From IMG/VR virus record IMGVR_UViG_3300016472_000848, positions 108,873 to 128,872 of that record: a DNA stretch of 20,000 nucleotides. One strand, written 5' to 3'. This stretch comes from an uncultured virus (IMG/VR IMGVR_UViG_3300016472_000848). Lineage: Duplodnaviria > Heunggongvirae > Uroviricota > Caudoviricetes. Positions 886 to 17,070 of this stretch are shown piece by piece. Both the position numbers and the translations under genes were made by a program. Below the pieces are notes generated by a model. The model did no database searches and was not told the origin of the DNA. It worked only from the letters and a program-made list of their open reading frames with translations. How positions within the stretch are numbered: position 1 is the first letter of the stretch; every line of letters starts with the position of its first letter.

Positions 886-3800
886 ATGAAGACATTAGAA
901 GAATTAAAAGCAGAAGGCGAAGCACCGGAATGGTTGTCAAATGATGCATTTCAAATGTTGCAAGGCGGTTATTTGTGGAATGACGAAACTCCTAAACAGA
1001 TGTATCGTCGTGTAGCAGCTTCTGTTGCCCAATCTCTAAAGAAGCCAGAATTAGAAGATAAGTTCTTTAACATTATGTGGAAGAACTGGTTGTGCCCTTC
1101 TACTCCAGTATTATGCAACACTGGAACAACTCGTGGTTTACCCATAAGCTGTTTAACTGGCGATTCTTGGGTTAATACAAAATCTGGCGGAAAACAAATT
1201 AAAGATATTCAAATTGGAGATCAGGTTCTTACTCACAAAGGTCGTTGGCGTAATGTTATCTCAAAAACATCACAACAGTCCAAAGATCCAATTTATATCC
1301 TAAAAGTTCGAACAAGAATGACTCCAGTTAAGATAACTGGTAATCACTTGGTCCTAACTAATTTAGGATGGGTCCGTGTTGATGAACTCGACATTAGCAA
1401 ACATTGGATTGCCGTTAATAAAGATATAGAATACGAAGAGAAAGACTACGCCATTTCATTGAAAGAATATTGTCCATATGCTCACATAGAGCATGATGGA
1501 AAAATATGCAAAATTCAAGAAACAAAATCAAATAAAAAGCGAGATATGAGAAAAGATCAAATCTTGTCATATTATTCGCAACCATATGCAACTATACCTG
1601 TTGATGAAGAGGTAGCTTGGGCTCTTGGGTTATGGTTCGCAGAAGGTAGCAGAAGTCAAAATCATAAAAAATTAGCAAATGGTATACGTATTACAATAGG
1701 ATCACATGAAGAACACTATGCAAAACGTTTTCTTCATATAATGAAAGAAAAATTTAATTTAAATGGAAATTATTACTTTTCTGAAAGTCCAAATCCAAAT
1801 AAATCTGGATATATGAATTCTTGGATCTCAGTAAATGTAAATGGAAGATTAATAGGAGAATTCTTTGATAAAGAATTTGGAATTGGTTGCAAAAATAAAA
1901 AAATTCCTCAATGGATCATTGATTTACCAAGACCAATATTAAAATCCTTTATTCAAGGAGTATTGGATGGAGATGGAAGCCGAAGTGCATCAGGAACCGA
2001 TAAAATTACATTAACAAATGGACCAATGATTTTGGGAATGTATAATTCTTTATTAAAACTCAAGGTTCCATGCTCTTTGCAAATGCAGACTAAAGCATCT
2101 AAGTTATCTAAAGATTCCTTTGTATATACGATTGACATGTATGATGGATACGACATGTCAAAAGCAAGAAAAAGACCAGCCGTAGGTATTCAATTTGAAA
2201 ATAATCTTTATGCCCCAATAGCAAGTTTAATAAAAACTGATATGAAAGAAGAGGTTTTTGATATCGGAGTTGAAGAAGATCATTCTTTTTCGGTTAGCGG
2301 AGTTGTTGTACATAACTGTTTCTCTTCCTATATGGCCGATGATACTTATGAAATTTTAGAAACCCTACAGGAAGTAGCAATGCTATCCAAGTATGGTGGT
2401 GGAACAGCTATCCACGTTAATGATGTTCGTGCTAAAGGAACACCAATCTCCAAAGGTGGACACTCAGATGGTGTAGTTCCATTCCTTAAAATGGCAGATA
2501 GCGTTATTCTTGGTATCTCTCAGGGTTCTACTCGTCGTGGTGCTTGTGCCGCCTACATTGATATTGAACATGGTGATTTTGACGAGTTCCTTCAGTCTCG
2601 CAGACCAACCGGCGATACCAATCGTCAATGCCTTAATCTTCATCATGGTGTTTGCGTCTCAAATGCCTTTATAGACAAGGTAAAAGCTGGTGACACAGAA
2701 GCCCGTAGACGCTGGAAAGAGCTGATTAAGAGCCGCGTAGAGACAGGAGAGCCCTATGTTTTCTTTACGGACAACGCTAATGATCAAGCGCCGCCTGTTT
2801 TAAAAGAAACTGGTATTAAACTTAAAGGCTCAAACCTTTGCGTAACCGGAGATCAGATGGTTGTAACTTCAAAAGGATTACGTAATGTCATTGATCTTGT
2901 TTCTTCTGGCGAGGAATTGACTTTATTTGATGGAAGTAAAAAAGTAAATGCTTCTCCAATGAAGCTAATAGAAAAAAATGCTCCTGTATATCGTATTACT
3001 ACAAAATCTGGACGAACACATGACGTTACATCATATCATAAAGTAAAAACAATTCGTGGAATGATTGCTTGCGAGGAGCTTAAAGCTGGAGATAAAATCT
3101 TTGTTCAACGCAATGAAGGTTTGTTTGGCAATATACACAAGCCGGAAATGGCATTCTTATTAGGTCTTTATCATGCAGATGGCACACAGACCGACAAATA
3201 TGTTTATATTGACATTTGGGAAAATGATTTTGAACTTCGTTCAGAGATAGAAAATTCAATACAGAAAGTTTATTCTGAAGAGAATTGGCTTGAATATGAT
3301 ATTAAAAATCAAACTGGCGTAAGTGTTGGTAAAAGAAAAACAAAAATTCCAACTTTTATTAAACAAAATACTGGATCATCATCTGTTCAAAAAATCCGTC
3401 TTGGATCACATAAGTTAAAACAATTTGGTTTTAAAAAAGGTGTAATACCAGACTGGATTTATCAAGGTGATAAAGAAACTATTTCTCAATATCTAAGAGG
3501 GCTTTATATCGCAGATGGAACAATAAACATCAGCAAATCACATGGAAATCCTCTATATCTTTCACTAGCTTCAATTGATCGTGATTTTCTTGGAAAGATA
3601 CAGATAATTCTTTCTAATCTCGGAATTGAATCAAAAATATATATGATGAGAAAAGCGGGTAAAAGTTTATTGCCTGACGGAAAGGGCGGTAGTAAATATT
3701 ATGATACGAAAGACTGCTGGCGGTTAAATATTAGCAATAAAACTGATGCAATAAAGTTTGATAAACTTACAGGATTTCTTGCATATAAAGGAAAATCTCT

Positions 3801-4866
3801 TCAAGAAAGAAAGTATAGAGATAATACAAAAAAATATGACGAAGTGAAGTCAGTAACTTACTTAAACAATCAAGATGTATATTGCACAACGGTTGATTCA
3901 AAAGAACATGTTTGGGTTTGTAATTCTTTTATAACTTCAAATTGTTCAGAAATTTTTCTTCCAACAGATAAGGATCATACCTTTGTTTGCTGCCTTTCTT
4001 CCCTTAATCTTGCAAGATGGGATGAATGGAAAGACACGGATACGGTTCAACTATCTGTATGGTTCCTTGATGGTATTATGGAGGAGTTTATTCAAAAGGC
4101 GGCTAACTTGAGAGGATTTGAAAGAGCACTAAATTTTGCTCGTAAATCCCGTGCTCTCGGTCTTGGTGTCCTCGGTCTACACTCATACTTCCAAAAGAAT
4201 ATGATTGCATTTGACAGCCTACAGGCTTATCTCCAGAATAAGATCATATTCAAGAAGATTAGAGAAGAAGCTGAGTTGGCTACAACGGCTCTTGCTGCTG
4301 AATATGGTGAGCCAGAGTGGTGTCGGGGTCATGGTAGAAGAAATGCTACTCTTATGGCTATAGCTCCAACTGTATCAAACTCCCTTATTGCTTCTAACGT
4401 ATCTCAGGGTATTGAACCATGGATTGCCAATGCATTTGCTCAAAAGAGTGCAAAGGGAACATTCGTAAGAAGAAATCCAGAATTTGAGAAGCTTCTCAAG
4501 AGCATTGGACAGGATACCGATGAAGTTTGGGGCTCTATTCTTAAGCATGATGGAAGTGTTCAGCATTTAGAATGTTTAACCGCTGAACAGAAAGAAGTGT
4601 TTCTTACTGCAAGAGAGCTAAATCAATTTGCTATTGTTAAGTTAGCCGCCGAAAGACAGAAGTTTATTGATCAAGGTCAGAGCATCAATATTTTCTTCCC
4701 AGCTAACAGCGATCCAAAGTATATCAATCAAGTTCATTTGGAAGCAGCCAATAGCGGTCTTAAGAGCCTTTATTATCTTCGTTCTACATCTGTTCTTAAG
4801 GCAGAACAAAATAGTAATGCGGTATATAAGAGAGAGTTAACAGAATGCACATGGTGCGAAGGATGA
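886..4866 (+). CDS. nrdA: Class I ribonucleotide reductase alpha subunit precursor with two inteins; spliced product about 569 aa, no ATP cone
   Basis: Motifs PSTPVLCN, GLPIS|CF, SKYGGGTA, SQGSTRRGA, TGEPY, GSNL|CSEI, RALGLGVLG, MAIAPT, DQGQSIN, GLKSLYYLR and C-terminal CTWCEG. 1326 aa minus 389 and 368 aa of intein leaves 569 aa. Confidence 0.97.
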   Translation: MKTLEELKAEGEAPEWLSNDAFQMLQGGYLWNDETPKQMYRRVAASVAQSLKKPELEDKFFNIMWKNWLCPSTPVLCNTGTTRGLPISCLTGDSWVNTKSGGKQIKDIQIGDQVLTHKGRWRNVISKTSQQSKDPIYILKVRTRMTPVKITGNHLVLTNLGWVRVDELDISKHWIAVNKDIEYEEKDYAISLKEYCPYAHIEHDGKICKIQETKSNKKRDMRKDQILSYYSQPYATIPVDEEVAWALGLWFAEGSRSQNHKKLANGIRITIGSHEEHYAKRFLHIMKEKFNLNGNYYFSESPNPNKSGYMNSWISVNVNGRLIGEFFDKEFGIGCKNKKIPQWIIDLPRPILKSFIQGVLDGDGSRSASGTDKITLTNGPMILGMYNSLLKLKVPCSLQMQTKASKLSKDSFVYTIDMYDGYDMSKARKRPAVGIQFENNLYAPIASLIKTDMKEEVFDIGVEEDHSFSVSGVVVHNCFSSYMADDTYEILETLQEVAMLSKYGGGTAIHVNDVRAKGTPISKGGHSDGVVPFLKMADSVILGISQGSTRRGACAAYIDIEHGDFDEFLQSRRPTGDTNRQCLNLHHGVCVSNAFIDKVKAGDTEARRRWKELIKSRVETGEPYVFFTDNANDQAPPVLKETGIKLKGSNLCVTGDQMVVTSKGLRNVIDLVSSGEELTLFDGSKKVNASPMKLIEKNAPVYRITTKSGRTHDVTSYHKVKTIRGMIACEELKAGDKIFVQRNEGLFGNIHKPEMAFLLGLYHADGTQTDKYVYIDIWENDFELRSEIENSIQKVYSEENWLEYDIKNQTGVSVGKRKTKIPTFIKQNTGSSSVQKIRLGSHKLKQFGFKKGVIPDWIYQGDKETISQYLRGLYIADGTINISKSHGNPLYLSLASIDRDFLGKIQIILSNLGIESKIYMMRKAGKSLLPDGKGGSKYYDTKDCWRLNISNKTDAIKFDKLTGFLAYKGKSLQERKYRDNTKKYDEVKSVTYLNNQDVYCTTVDSKEHVWVCNSFITSNCSEIFLPTDKDHTFVCCLSSLNLARWDEWKDTDTVQLSVWFLDGIMEEFIQKAANLRGFERALNFARKSRALGLGVLGLHSYFQKNMIAFDSLQAYLQNKIIFKKIREEAELATTALAAEYGEPEWCRGHGRRNATLMAIAPTVSNSLIASNVSQGIEPWIANAFAQKSAKGTFVRRNPEFEKLLKSIGQDTDEVWGSILKHDGSVQHLECLTAEQKEVFLTARELNQFAIVKLAAERQKFIDQGQSINIFFPANSDPKYINQVHLEAANSGLKSLYYLRSTSVLKAEQNSNAVYKRELTECTWCEG
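1150..2316 (+). mobile_element. Intein 1 in NrdA with LAGLIDADG homing endonuclease (389 aa)
   Basis: Starts CLTGDSWV and has block B ITGNHLV. LAGLIDADG-like helices ALGLWFAEGS and FIQGVLDGDGS. Ends VFDIGVEEDHSFSVSGVVVHN, followed by +1 Cys. Removal restores GLPISCFSSY. Confidence 0.95.
2839..3942 (+). mobile_element. Intein 2 in NrdA with LAGLIDADG homing endonuclease (368 aa)
   Basis: Starts CVTGDQMV and has block B VTSYHKV. Helices LLGLYHADGT and YLRGLYIADGT. Ends DVYCTTVDSKEHVWVCNSFITSN, followed by +1 Cys. Removal restores the active-site GSNLCSEIF. Confidence 0.95.
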
Positions 4867-6125: not shown

Positions 6126-6458
6126 ATGGAACCAATATATTTTTTAGTAATTGCTAGCTATTTTGTAGTTTTTTCTATGGGATTTATTATAGCTCGTTTA
6201 AGCGGCACCGCTGTAACTAATTCTATTCCACAAATTCAGCATGAAAATCCAATCAGTCAAACAACAAAAGCAGTTATCGAAGAAAAAAAAGCAAATAAAA
6301 AAATAGAGATTGATGAAAAAAAGTTTATAACTGAAATACAAACTGATACCCTAGAAAAAAAGTTTAATGATTTAGGTAAGAAAACTGTTGCACAAGATGA
6401 GTCTTTAGGTGCGAATGTATCAAAACTTGCTTCATTAAAAAAAAATAAAGAGGGCTAA
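6126..6458 (+). CDS. Small protein with one N-terminal transmembrane helix and a charged soluble tail
   Basis: Hydrophobic segment IYFLVIASYFVVFSMGFIIA followed by a K/E-rich region. Function unknown. Confidence 0.7.
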   Translation: MEPIYFLVIASYFVVFSMGFIIARLSGTAVTNSIPQIQHENPISQTTKAVIEEKKANKKIEIDEKKFITEIQTDTLEKKFNDLGKKTVAQDESLGANVSKLASLKKNKEG

Positions 6459-6514
6459 TCGTGGGTTTTAAAATACCAGAAACAGAAGAAAAAAAACAAA
6501 AGAGGAGTAAGAAG

Positions 6515-8638
6515 ATGGCTAAATTAGGAAAAGGTTTAGATGTAGGTACATCTTTCATTGTACTAGCGTCTGAACATGATAAAGGTGCAGTTGAGTATAA
6601 AGATTTTCGTGATGCATTCTATGTAATAAAACCAGCAACACCAATTGCTGCAAAGATGATTGAAAAGGGTTTGACAGGTAAAACCTTCGTTAAAGATACG
6701 GATGGTTCATTCATCCTACTTGGTAAGGATGCTATTGAAAAAGCCATAGAACGCAATGATAGCGCCAAGCGTCCTATGTATCGTGGTGTTGTTTCCTCCA
6801 AAGAAAAGGATGCACGCAGAGTTTTGTCATATATTCTTAAAGAGGTAGCAGGAGAGCCAGCGGAAAAGGGAGAAAAGCTTGTATTCTGTATTCCTGCTCA
6901 ACCAATTGATCAGGAAGATGATGAATTTGACGTTGGTTATCATGAAGACGTTGTAAAGAAGGTTCTATCTGATGTTGGTTATGCTCCCCGAGCTATCAAC
7001 GAGGCAGAAGCCCTGTGCTATTCAGAGCTTGAAAATGATGATTATACGGGAATTTCGCTATCTTGCTTAATTCCAGGTACTAAAGTATATACTAAAAATG
7101 GCATTGTCAATATAGAAAATGTAAAGATTGGGGATTTGGTTTTTACTCATAAGGGTCGATGGCGTCCTGTAACAAATGTAATAACAAAACATTTTGAGGG
7201 AACGGCTACAAAATTGCAATTGCAAGGTTATTCGAATACATGCGAAGATTACAAATTTGTTGACAATCACGAATTATATGTGTGCCGCAATAATAAATGG
7301 CAATGGATCGGTTGCGAAGAAATTGAGGTTGGTGACATTGTAGGTGAACCCATACAGCAGCAAGATCGTTTTGGAAAAGGAGAGCCTGGAATTACTATAT
7401 GTGAGCGCACAACAAGCTCAAATACATATTCAAAAACTAGGATTGCAGCAACTCCAAATGTTCAAAGATTAGTTGGATATTTTCTTGGAGATGGAAGCGT
7501 TAATGAAGCAGAAGGTTGTATTCAATTTGATTTTTCAAAAAATGAAGAAAACAACATTAAAGATGTTCAGGATATCTTGTTGCGAAATTTTAATAAAAAT
7601 TCCTCAGTTGTTTCAAAAGATGAAAACTGTGTAAGAGTCAAATGTTATTCTAGAGGAATTTTAAATTGGTTTAAGAACCATTTGTATGATGCCGCTGGAA
7701 ATAAATGTTATCCATGGGATTTGGATCGCATTTCAAAAAATGACTGTATAAATCTTCTTACCGGTCTAATAAGATCAGATGGTACATGGAATGAAAATGT
7801 ATTTTCATTTTCAAATACAAATACTCATCTTATCTGGTTAGCAAAACAATTGTGCGCTAGATTAGGCTTGGCTGCTTCTATACATTATCGAGAACCAAGA
7901 ATCGGTGGTACAATTGATAATCGTACAATTGTTGGCAAAAAACAAGAATGGACCATATCGGTTGGTGCAAAACTAGGTTCACTTTCTGTTAAAGATTACA
8001 TAGAAAATGTAAACTGTGAAAATAGTAAATTTATTGAAAAAATGTACATTGATAATAATTTTATTTGTACTCATGTTCAAAAAATTGAAAATGAAGAATA
8101 TTCTGGAATTGTATATGATCTACAGGTAGAAGAAGATCATTCATTTACTGGGCCATTTTTAACAATACATAATTGCGGCGCGGGAATGGTGAACATTTGT
8201 GTAATGCTTAATGGTGAGCCTGTATTAACTTTCTCCACCACAAAGAGTGGTGACTGGATTGATCGTATGGCAGCGGTTGCTACTGGTCAAACAGATAGCA
8301 TTGTCCAGGCTGAGAAAGAAGGTGGAGATTTCACCATTGGAGAGCCTAATGATAATCAAATTCTTGCTGCTGTTTCTTCTTATTATGAACGTCTTATTGA
8401 TTATACCACCAAGCAACTTGCTGCTGCTTTAGCTGATCACAAGGATCTTCCAAAGTTTAAGGATCCTTTGCCGGTTGTAGTGGGTGGCGGAACAACGCAG
8501 GCTAAGGGTTTCGTAGCTACATTTGCAAAGAAGCTTGAAGCTAATGGTTTCCCTGTTGCAGTTAAGGAAGTAAGACACGCCGCAGATCCTCTTCATGCTG
8601 TTGCTAGAGGATGTTTAATTGCGAGTCAAATACTTTGA
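6515..8638 (+). CDS. Actin-fold ATPase, volactin-like, intein-containing precursor (707 aa; spliced about 337 aa)
   Basis: ATG 6515 has AGGAG at 6503-6507, so it is preferred to the GTG at 6461. Actin motifs: phosphate-1 GLDVGTS, connect-1 AINEAEA, phosphate-2 GISLS|CGAGM, SGDWID, adenosine VVGGGTT, connect-2 DPLHAVARG. Confidence 0.9.
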   Translation: MAKLGKGLDVGTSFIVLASEHDKGAVEYKDFRDAFYVIKPATPIAAKMIEKGLTGKTFVKDTDGSFILLGKDAIEKAIERNDSAKRPMYRGVVSSKEKDARRVLSYILKEVAGEPAEKGEKLVFCIPAQPIDQEDDEFDVGYHEDVVKKVLSDVGYAPRAINEAEALCYSELENDDYTGISLSCLIPGTKVYTKNGIVNIENVKIGDLVFTHKGRWRPVTNVITKHFEGTATKLQLQGYSNTCEDYKFVDNHELYVCRNNKWQWIGCEEIEVGDIVGEPIQQQDRFGKGEPGITICERTTSSNTYSKTRIAATPNVQRLVGYFLGDGSVNEAEGCIQFDFSKNEENNIKDVQDILLRNFNKNSSVVSKDENCVRVKCYSRGILNWFKNHLYDAAGNKCYPWDLDRISKNDCINLLTGLIRSDGTWNENVFSFSNTNTHLIWLAKQLCARLGLAASIHYREPRIGGTIDNRTIVGKKQEWTISVGAKLGSLSVKDYIENVNCENSKFIEKMYIDNNFICTHVQKIENEEYSGIVYDLQVEEDHSFTGPFLTIHNCGAGMVNICVMLNGEPVLTFSTTKSGDWIDRMAAVATGQTDSIVQAEKEGGDFTIGEPNDNQILAAVSSYYERLIDYTTKQLAAALADHKDLPKFKDPLPVVVGGGTTQAKGFVATFAKKLEANGFPVAVKEVRHAADPLHAVARGCLIASQIL
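7064..8173 (+). mobile_element. Intein 3 in the actin-like protein, with LAGLIDADG homing endonuclease (370 aa)
   Basis: Starts CLIPGTKV. Block B region FVDNHEL. Helices LVGYFLGDGS and LLTGLIRSDGT. Ends VYDLQVEEDHSFTGPFLTIHN, followed by +1 Cys of CGAGM. Confidence 0.93.
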
Positions 8639-8658: not shown

Positions 8659-8684
8659 AAAGGACCGCGAAAGCGGTCCTTTTT
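8659..8684 (+). terminator. Rho-independent terminator
   Basis: AAAGGACCGC-GAAA-GCGGTCCTTT is a perfect 10-bp stem with a GNRA loop running into a T tract, 20 nt after the stop codon of the actin gene. Confidence 0.9.
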
Positions 8685-8709
8685 CATTTGTAGAAAATAT
8701 TTATTGAAC

Positions 8710-9780
8710 ATGAATAATGATTCTTTAAAAGAAATTATTAAAGAAATAATTGTCAAAGAATTCATGGCAATTAGTTTAGGTGCCGGGAGCATGATACCTT
8801 CGGGTCAAATTGCTGGAGGACCGGCATTGCCATTGGGTGTGCCAAATAAAATTCCATCTGATATAGCATCGCCCGCCGGTAGGAAAAAAAGAAAAAGGAA
8901 AAAGAGAAAAAGCGGATTAAATGAAGCAAACTCTGTAATTGGCATGAATTTGGCTGCGTGGGGGGTAGATACACCTGAACAATTATTTGGAAGCAATTAT
9001 CTAACTGATACAGATACGGAAATGTATACAGATGGAGATGAAACAAATATTCCGAATAATAAAAATACAAAAACAAGTAAATATAAAAGCAATGCACATA
9101 AAGTAAATCCATCAAAAGATAGATTTTCTTCTAAAAAACAAAATTTCTCTTCTGGTAGAGATAGTAAAATATTAAAAACTAGTTCGCAAAAAGCTTTACA
9201 CTTGAAAAGTAAAAATCCATTTCATGAATTAATGTGGGCAGGAGATGCCTCTGTTCCAAACATCTTAAAAGTAAGATACGTTATTTTAGAAGAATATTTG
9301 AAAGAAAATTCTGGATATGTAAAAATATCAAACGAAGGACATCCTTATGTTTCTACAGCAATCATTCATCTAGACAAAGATATAACAGAAGAAACAAAAG
9401 ATGCACTAACTAATTTTTTGCAATTCTGTCAAGCAATGTTAGGAATTCAAGTTTTTCCAGAGATATATATCGTATCTGAACGTATGCCAGGGATGACTAC
9501 CGGAGCATATCTTCCAAGCCGAAAAATTGTTCTTGCATTATCTGAAAATAGATTGATGATAGATGTATTCAGAACAATTGCTCATGAATTAACTCATTGC
9601 AAGCAACATGAGCGCGGCGAGCTTGACAATCTCCCAGAACGAAAAGGCGAAGACGATATGGGCGACGTTAATACGCCATATGAAAATGAAGCCTATATGA
9701 ATTCAGGAAATTTTTCAAAAGCTTGGGCAAGGCTATATAAAGGCATGACAAGAGATGAAATCTTTTCAGCAACAATGTGA
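8710..9780 (+). CDS. Multi-segment protein with a C-terminal HEXXH zincin-like metallopeptidase domain
   Basis: ATG 8710 (the track uses TTG 8704). Contains RTIAHELTHCKQ with a downstream YENEAY. The N-terminus has an LKEIIKEII leader and a basic RKKRKRKKRK patch. Confidence 0.7.
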   Translation: MNNDSLKEIIKEIIVKEFMAISLGAGSMIPSGQIAGGPALPLGVPNKIPSDIASPAGRKKRKRKKRKSGLNEANSVIGMNLAAWGVDTPEQLFGSNYLTDTDTEMYTDGDETNIPNNKNTKTSKYKSNAHKVNPSKDRFSSKKQNFSSGRDSKILKTSSQKALHLKSKNPFHELMWAGDASVPNILKVRYVILEEYLKENSGYVKISNEGHPYVSTAIIHLDKDITEETKDALTNFLQFCQAMLGIQVFPEIYIVSERMPGMTTGAYLPSRKIVLALSENRLMIDVFRTIAHELTHCKQHERGELDNLPERKGEDDMGDVNTPYENEAYMNSGNFSKAWARLYKGMTRDEIFSATM

Positions 9781-16722: not shown

Positions 16723-17070
16723 ATGAAAGCAAAAAGAAAAGCTGGTCAAAATAAGTTAGTCAAAGATAAATGTGAGATATGTGGTTTTAATAAGAGTGCC
16801 GCATTAAATCTCCATCACATTATTCCTCGATGCGATCCAAGATGCACAAATGACAATCACAATCTTGCTGTAGTATGTCATTCATGTCATGATCTTGTAC
16901 ACGCTTCGCCGCCAGAGATAACAATTGTAGGAGTATACAGTTCTACTGCTGGCAGAAAATTATTTTTCTATTATGGAGATAGCCCACCTCCAGATTTTCT
17001 TCCACGAGAATTTTGGAAGATTAAACCAGAAGAAAATCTATTGCTTGCTCGTGGTAAGCGTAACATTTGA
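16723..17070 (+). CDS. HNH endonuclease-family protein
   Basis: CEICG...LNLHHIIPR...NDNHNLAVVCHSCHDLVH. Confidence 0.85.
   Translation: MKAKRKAGQNKLVKDKCEICGFNKSAALNLHHIIPRCDPRCTNDNHNLAVVCHSCHDLVHASPPEITIVGVYSSTAGRKLFFYYGDSPPPDFLPREFWKIKPEENLLLARGKRNI

Follow-up and report, generated by a model that had tools for sequence, protein, structure and literature searches.

A probable homing intein in the phosphate-2 hairpin of a huge-phage Volactin-family actin

What is a 370-residue insert doing inside the nucleotide-binding hairpin of an actin-like gene, and does its presence serve the phage or only the insert itself? Inteins favor the nucleotide-binding loops of replication and repair ATPases. 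The locus considered here lies in the final 20 kb (the window, meaning the whole stretch of DNA that was analyzed) of the 128,872-bp IMG/VR virus record IMGVR_UViG_3300016472_000848, derived from an uncultured virus. Our analysis of sequences and predicted structures favors a selfish, mobile class-1 intein with an active-looking endonuclease, lodged in the phosphate-2 hairpin of a Volactin-family actin encoded by a huge phage, and we place the probability of this reading at roughly 0.8. The interrupted gene and the parts of its insert are as follows (window coordinates).

6461..8638, plus strand: actin-gene open reading frame (ORF), open throughout, 725 aa from GTG 6461 or 707 aa from ATG 6515
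6461..7063, plus strand: N-extein, which includes the phosphate-1 motif LDVGTS and ends ...ENDDYTGISLS
7064..8173, plus strand: intein, 1110 nt and 370 aa, in which a LAGLIDADG endonuclease domain interrupts a Hint splicing domain
7064..7066, plus strand: Cys1 (TGC), the N-terminal splicing nucleophile, in block A
7259..7270, plus strand: block B, V66-D-N-H69
7469..7501, plus strand: LAGLIDADG motif 1, LVGYFLGDGSV, with catalytic Asp143 at 7490-7492
7754..7789, plus strand: LAGLIDADG motif 2, LLTGLIRSDGTW, with catalytic Asp239 at 7778-7780
8099..8173, plus strand: blocks F and G, YSGIVYDLQVEEDHSFTGPFLTIHN, with Asp352, His359, His369 and the terminal Asn370 (8171-8173)
8174..8176, plus strand: +1 Cys (TGC), the first C-extein residue and second splicing nucleophile
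8174..8638, plus strand: C-extein, 154 aa and stop, with GAGMVN (the rest of phosphate-2), SGDWID and the adenosine motif VVGGGTTQAKGF

Read directly from the DNA, the N-terminal junction is ...GISLS|CLIPGTKVY... and the C-terminal junction is ...SFTGPFLTIHN|CGAGMVN...; the insert ends with CAT AAT at 8168-8173, and the C-extein resumes as CGAGMVNICVMLNGEP... at TGC 8174. Three Pfam profiles match the insert alone above their cut-offs: LAGLIDADG_3 (7.3e-12, 45.8 bits, cut-off 22.5), Intein_splicing (2.7e-9, 37.5 bits, cut-off 35.8) and Hint_2 (1.1e-6, 29.6 bits, cut-off 28.4). We aligned 17 inteins that occupy the same site and are 27-99% identical to that of the window. Cys1, His69, Asp352, His369 and Asn370 are each present in 17/17, the block F His359 in 16/17 and the +1 Cys in 16/16 of the other alleles. 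Conservation extends to the endonuclease, with Asp143 in 16/17 and Asp239 in 17/17. An AlphaFold 2 (AF2) model of the intein (mean predicted local distance difference test score (pLDDT) of 88.3) has two alpha-beta-beta-alpha-beta-beta-alpha units surrounded by a splicing domain rich in beta strands. Foldseek matches this model best to the TliVMA intein (7qsu, 3.3e-16), PI-SceI (1vde, 4.9e-16), PI-TkoII (2cw7), PhoVMA and PI-PfuI (1dq3), and the endonuclease core is matched by I-DmoI and WhiA. From its sequence and predicted fold, the insert appears to be a canonical class-1 intein with an active-looking LAGLIDADG homing endonuclease; the combined signal goes well beyond chance.

The two flanks of the intein belong to a single family. 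The Volactin profile PF25216 (cut-off 35 bits) matches the N-extein over profile positions 3-171 of 321 (3e-26, 93.1 bits) and the C-extein over positions 174-320 (6e-29, 102 bits). The whole precursor scores 189.5 bits, and the genome record gives the same result. To model the fold of the exteins we used as a proxy their closest full-length intein-less homolog, P0006, which has 337 aa and is 90% identical to them. Its AF2 model, built with an 82-sequence alignment, is predicted with high confidence (pLDDT of 96.7; predicted template-modeling score of 0.93). The top folds returned for it by Foldseek are the MamK filament (5ljv), BeeR (8r2n) and MreB, and the family profile finds MamK among PDB sequences at 2.1e-16. 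The phosphate-1, phosphate-2 and adenosine motifs are all present in this actin-like family, in which the columns D9, G11, G185, G187, D210, D213, G288 and G289 are invariant; the position of the conserved phosphate-2 Asp is occupied by Ser183, which is nearly invariant in the phage family. Profile and model together confirm the host as a Volactin-family protein with a predicted actin fold, a putative ATPase.

The start of this gene is ambiguous. GTG 6461, after AAAGAGGG, would add MGFKIPETEEKKQKRSKK to the product, and ATG 6515 is the alternative. The extension, which begins MGFKIP, is kept in frame with whole-codon indels in P0001, P0003, P0004, P0005, P0007 and the second intein-bearing contig described below, and more distant relatives begin at the equivalent of ATG 6515. 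Many distant Volactin-family representatives (P0142, P0159, P0160, P0164, P0180 and others) carry N-terminal extensions of 110-580 aa before the actin domain, and in P0160 an extra partial actin segment precedes the full domain.

The phosphate-2 hairpin of actin-fold ATPases contacts the nucleotide phosphates. A profile alignment pairs the family sequence iSfGaGmvN with vDIGAGTTD of MamK, with the insertion point falling at D|I in DIGAGTTD. In the P0006 model this hairpin consists of a strand (residues 179-184), the GAGM turn and the next strand (189-195), and the intein lies between Ser183 and residue 184 (P0006 numbering, used hereafter). It falls between PF25216 profile positions ~171 and 174 and replaces no profile residues. 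The precursor would be unable to form the nucleotide site, because 370 residues separate the last strand residue from the GAG turn; we therefore expect the unspliced protein to be inactive. In these respects the sequence-only reading of the window was borne out: it had placed a full-length intein with two intact-looking LAGLIDADG helices at 7064..8173, 370 aa long, within the phosphate-2 motif of an actin-fold protein. Its coordinates, length and junctions are exact, and its structural claims agree with the Pfam matches, the 17-intein alignment and Foldseek results, the PF25216 match to both halves, the P0006 model and MamK match, and the position of residue 184 at the strand end, ahead of the GAGM turn.

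Such a location raises the idea that the intein is a domesticated conditional switch, in which splicing waits for a cue (the redox state of Cys1 and Cys+1, temperature, a metal or the stage of infection) and so times filament assembly. The disruption of the nucleotide-binding hairpin, which should leave the precursor inactive, fits this idea, as does the use of Cys for both nucleophiles. We nonetheless regard the switch as very unlikely. If the intein were needed for the function of the actin, it should be present in close relatives, and it is absent from 79/80 of them; a conserved endonuclease active site together with recent movement is the behavior of a parasite; and the same phage carries inteins in classical hosts.

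The count of relatives comes from a search of IMG/VR with the N-extein, in which 215 stretches encode relatives, and 80 loci were kept. The site is empty in 79 of these, the sole occupied allele being G001, a 55-kb viral contig with the same intein at the same site. Flanks are colinear across the empty site in P0006, P0001 and L009, the last being an empty allele whose gene order matches that of the window and whose exteins are 92% and 95% identical to the window's. At the +1 position, the 79 empty alleles carry Cys (51), Trp (26), Tyr (1) or Ala (1). A database search with the C-extein returned 1802 relatives at E ≤ 1e-5; among the best 120 of them, mostly 334 aa long, 109 have Trp at +1, 10 have Cys and 1 has Phe; the intein-bearing fragment P0002 is among the 10 with Cys. 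Cys is thus a common native +1 residue in the family. The proposal that a Phe-to-Cys change created the site does not agree with these alleles: the empty ones carry Trp or Cys, and Phe appears only once among the best 120. In the window's own clade (N-exteins 86-92% identical), moreover, empty alleles uniformly have Trp (TGG) at +1, and Cys appears to arrive with the intein by co-conversion. Among deposited phages, tblastn with the C-extein finds relatives only in two huge uncultured phages, at 37% identity, and both are intein-less.

Two sets of empty alleles resemble the occupied ones at the junction. The intein-less P0006 has the ISLS flank of intein-bearing alleles but Phe at +1, and in the empty VALS|CGAGMVNCC alleles (L035-L038, L058 and L075) the downstream DNA is almost the flank found in the window (TGCGGCGC.GG.ATGGTG). 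Both could be preferred targets, ancestors of the donors or products of intein loss. Judging from sequence, the Cys-bearing empty alleles, and likewise P0006, may be footprints of intein loss or may be native.

Comparison of the window with G001 separates the history of the intein from that of its host gene. The intein DNA is 98.7% identical (1096/1110), versus 83.6% (459/549) for the N-extein and 83.4% (388/465) for the C-extein. The codon differences (synonymous plus nonsynonymous) are 8 + 6 of 370 in the intein, 60 + 19 of 183 in the N-extein and 53 + 13 of 154 in the C-extein. Because synonymous differences predominate in the exteins, these appear to be under strong purifying selection, in keeping with the earlier claim that the host gene is conserved. 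Identity in the flanks extends only 12 nt upstream and 8 nt downstream of the intein, with the nearest differences at 7051 and 8182.

7052..7063, plus strand: upstream co-conversion tract, codons Ile-Ser-Leu-Ser, 12 nt identical to G001

At the protein level, the G001 exteins differ from those of the intein-less P0003 at one residue and, beyond that, only beside the junction: G001 shares GISLS|C with the window, whereas P0003 has GVALS|W. An intein far more identical than its exteins, bounded by short identical flanks, is indirect evidence of a recent homing event with a short co-conversion tract that would have brought the Cys codon along. Other alleles are discordant too, and in P0152 and L090 the intein is again closer than the exteins: P0152 and the window share 58% identity in the intein and 45% and 42% in the exteins; for L090 the values are 58%, and 39% and 46%; and for P0123, P0126 and P0127 the inteins are 57-62% and the exteins 66-75% identical. 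Among the IMG/VR loci we sought an intein-less DNA twin of G001 and found none closer than 84.5%.

The intein of G001 contains a 10-N scaffold gap (L008, 2544-2553) flanked by duplicated AACAACA, at a point equivalent to ~7550 in the window. P0002 changes at exactly that point: its N-terminus, MKLCILGDTHFG..., is unrelated, and intein sequence follows. The gap and the switch, which coincide in position, both resemble chimeras or breaks in the assembly.

A transfer this recent, between phages whose host genes differ by ~16% in DNA, also bears on whether the element acts as a phage-phage weapon, its endonuclease cutting the essential actin gene of co-infecting intein-less relatives so that marker exclusion favors the carrier genome as well as the intein. 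The conserved endonuclease residues speak for such a role, as does the wealth of homing elements in this phage (at least six intein signatures and the HNH gene at 16723-17070). The co-conversion tract, however, is very short (12 and 8 nt), so that little carrier DNA is dragged along, and we consider the weapon an unlikely account. It is compatible with our preferred explanation, a selfish mobile intein, and does not exclude it. We favor the selfish reading because close relatives are nearly all without the intein, because the intein has moved recently and because the endonuclease residues have been kept.

Under this reading, the actin gene would be translated as a precursor of ~707-725 aa. Excision would begin with an N-S acyl shift at Cys1, continue with trans-thioesterification to Cys+1 and cyclization of Asn370, and end with an S-N shift, yielding a mature actin of ~337-355 aa with a Cys at the position that is Trp in close relatives. 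Rapid, constitutive splicing is the likeliest mode, because the inteins in PolIII-alpha, ribonucleotide reductase (RNR) and PhoH of the same phage must splice promptly within an infection. In a mixed infection, the endonuclease of the free intein would then cut the intein-less alleles of related phages, and repair would copy the intein together with a few flanking codons, that for Cys included.

Several points count against this reading. The block B Thr position is Val in the window's subfamily (10/17 of the aligned inteins) and Thr in a distant subfamily (7/17), and Val at this position could slow the first splicing step. The inferred co-conversion tract draws on a single informative pair and on the protein P0003, and inteins at the window's site are represented by four DNA loci (the window, G001, L089 and L090). 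The 14 intein differences, which include 6 nonsynonymous codons, are too few to show purifying selection on the intein over so brief a period. Finally, the fraction of G and C is 0.323 in the intein versus 0.399 and 0.442 in the exteins, a difference that seems to fit a mobile element and proves nothing about activity.

The block B substitution is also what would suggest that the insert is decaying or does not splice, that is, a pseudogene or an element no longer able to splice or to cut DNA and simply tolerated. Against this stand the intact 725-codon frame, the presence and conservation of all catalytic residues, the strong purifying selection on the exteins and the near-identical copy of the intein in a diverged genome (G001). 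Many alleles of the Val66 subfamily share the residue, so Val66 is best read as a trait of the lineage, with no lesion implied. We give decay almost no credence.

How far has the element spread? A search with the intein alone, limited to proteins of 649-2000 aa, returned 168 matches at E ≤ 1e-5. PF25216 is present in 115 of the best 120, whose inteins are 37-63% identical to that of the window; the other 5 of the best 120 are RNR inteins, 25-27% identical. In all 108 Volactin-type matches added by this search, the S|C split falls on one and the same position of the profile. Some of the intein-bearing Volactin-type matches lie on contigs of 217-473 kb, and a few matches carry the automatic Joint Genome Institute (JGI) name 'intein/homing endonuclease/actin-like ATPase involved in cell morphogenesis'. 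These matches suggest that the intein lineage is large and specific to Volactin-type hosts.

In a HMMER scan of 1.84 billion cluster representatives with P0006, 965 clusters matched at E ≤ 1e-3 and 291 at E ≤ 1e-30, and 17 of the top 150 representatives bear inteins. We mapped the junctions of 33 intein-bearing proteins from per-domain hmmsearch coordinates, which gives the following insertion positions.

181|182: n = 1 (P0136)
183|184: n = 14, the window's site
185|186: n = 1 (P0230), with Ser at +1
188|189: n = 2 (P0243 and P0248)
Just before the conserved Cys192: n = 3 (P0187, P0283 and P0251)
207|208: n = 12, before SGDWID

Within 27 residues of this family, inteins therefore occupy about six positions, and those at 207|208 belong to a different lineage from that of the window. 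Positions 190 and 191 had been candidates for separate sites; they are probably one, offset by a one-residue length difference (MTNC versus MVNVC).

This distribution provides two further arguments for a conditional switch, namely that the intein lineage has kept to a single host gene even among deeply diverged members and that the inteins of related family members cluster at about six positions in the same hairpin. Clustering at nucleotide-binding motifs is, however, the usual intein pattern, as seen in the hosts treated in PMC4760082, and conservation of the endonuclease target and the cost of imprecise loss could explain it. A broader version would have the inteins of this hairpin hotspot co-opted by the phages, with the actin kept inert until a cue (for example, redox) arrives and the endonucleases converting or crippling the actin gene of competitors. 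This version strikes us as quite improbable. If true, it would mark the first case of a natural 'fuse' acting post-translationally on a cytoskeletal polymer.

A scan of the genome collection with P0006 added five loci (L091-L095) with 71-80% identity, on contigs of 2.9-9.5 kb from metagenome-assembled genomes labeled discordantly as Chitinophagia, Flavobacteriales, Alphaproteobacteria and Saccharibacteria. We rejected these labels as evidence of the host: the contigs are short and the taxa discordant, so that phage DNA binned in error is their probable source. The match to L095 covers residues 3-207 alone; this locus is P0122, an allele with its intein at 207|208.

Among characterized inteins, that of the window is most like PI-SceI (VMA1), TliVMA and PhoVMA, PI-PfuI and PI-TkoII, in which a two-motif LAGLIDADG endonuclease also interrupts the Hint domain. 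It shares with the PI-SceI type Cys1, the block B His, the block F Asp and His, the terminal His-Asn and the +1 nucleophile, as well as a location within a conserved motif through which an ATPase binds its nucleotide. It differs in its sequence, which is only 12-17% identical to those of solved inteins, in its actin-fold host (rather than a V-ATPase, polymerase or RNR) and in the Val that replaces the block B Thr. The classical hosts RNR, PolIII-alpha, PhoH, DnaB and terminase (PMC4760082) offer a second comparison. Inteins in RNR (two), PolIII-alpha and PIN-PhoH occur on the same contig as the actin gene, and the preference for catalytic or nucleotide-binding loops is shared; unlike these, the actin intein belongs to a lineage confined to Volactin-type hosts (115 of the best 120 matches), the nearest non-actin inteins found (in RNR) being only 25-27% identical.

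On the side of the host, both extein halves score above the family cut-off of volactin (VolA of Haloferax volcanii, PF25216). Unlike VolA, the protein is phage-encoded, has Ser183 in place of the phosphate-2 Asp and is interrupted by an intein. The main text of the volactin paper (PMC10869688) contains none of the words intein, phage and virus. Table 1 of PMC4760082 lists DnaB, RNR, PolIII-alpha, RecA, PhoH and others as intein hosts, and the words MreB, cytoskelet, Hsp70 and FtsA are absent from its main text. In its available text, PMC10710043 states that no intein hosts had earlier been reported from the cytoskeleton category, and it describes inteins in dynein and kinesin of Anaeramoeba. 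Those cases resemble ours in the cytoskeletal category of the host and in the insertion in a conserved region; their hosts, unlike ours, are eukaryotic P-loop/AAA+ motors, neither phage proteins nor actin-fold filament proteins. As far as their accessible text goes, PMC12363816 reports inteins in Jug phages, naming nrdD and polymerase, and PMC13282480 mentions inteins once.

In the titles, abstracts and passages surveyed, we found no natural intein in an actin-fold protein. Cytoskeletal intein hosts are indeed atypical, as had been supposed (PMC4760082, PMC10710043, within the text available from each). The suggestion that the insertion site is new holds only in the sense that we found no published description of it, since the allele is abundant in public sequences (115 of the best 120 matches) and some JGI names already say intein/actin-like ATPase. 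What we describe is a canonical intein in an unusual and seemingly undescribed host.

With this finding, the preference of inteins for nucleotide-binding loops reaches a structurally unrelated ATPase fold, that of actin, and a filament protein of the cytoskeleton. The element is abundant, with 115 of the best 120 matches in Volactin-type hosts, several further insertion positions and apparently fresh homing; this abundance is independent evidence that the phage actin, itself little studied, is important and conserved among phages that encounter one another within shared cells. A splice-dead precursor, with Cys1 or Asn370 changed, would offer a clean inactive control for studies of phage actin function, and the endonuclease would represent a new specificity directed at a conserved motif of the actin.

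CheckV estimates the record to be 28% complete at its 128,872 bp, which points to a fragment of a huge phage. A megablast search of the whole window against deposited phages gave no match. By Pfam and PHROG, the neighbors of the actin gene in the window are the RNR small and large subunits, an amidase and ThyX, and further UvdE, an HNH endonuclease, a CCA-adding enzyme and a virion protein. Within 129 kb we count at least six intein signatures, that of the actin gene and at least five others in PolIII-alpha, PhoH and RNR. The genes concerned, and other features near the actin gene, are as follows.

Window 886-4866, plus strand: RNR large-subunit gene, 1326 aa, with two inteins
G000:C1:3-3518 (L096), elsewhere on the record: PolIII-alpha gene with an Intein_splicing domain
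G000:C1:22385-25891 (L097), elsewhere on the record: PIN-PhoH gene with Intein_splicing and two LAGLIDADG regions
Window 16723-17070, plus strand: free-standing HNH endonuclease gene, between the UvdE and CCA-adding enzyme genes
Window 6126..6458, plus strand: 110-aa ORF upstream of the actin gene, its N-terminus hydrophobic (MEPIYFLVIASYFVVFSMGFIIARL...) and its tail charged and Lys/Glu-rich
Window 8659..8686, plus strand: intrinsic-terminator-like hairpin at the gene end, with a 10-bp stem, 6 GC pairs and a T run
Window 8704-9780, plus strand: downstream 358-aa ORF with a Lys-rich stretch and a HELTH (HExxH-like) motif

The first RNR intein is marked by Intein_splicing and Hint matches at about residues 88-477 of the large subunit, and the second by Hint and LAGLIDADG_3 at about residues 720-1010. 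The domain content of the PIN-PhoH gene possibly reflects two inteins rather than one. The HNH gene is another homing-type element in the window.

Two ORFs adjoining the actin gene have no match in Pfam or PHROG. The stop codon of the 110-aa ORF lies 2 nt ahead of the actin GTG 6461, and by tblastn its relatives stand directly upstream of the actin gene in 23/84 loci, which makes it a candidate membrane partner or adaptor of the actin, separate from the intein. The 358-aa ORF is kept after the actin gene in L009 and L089, at 77-78% identity.

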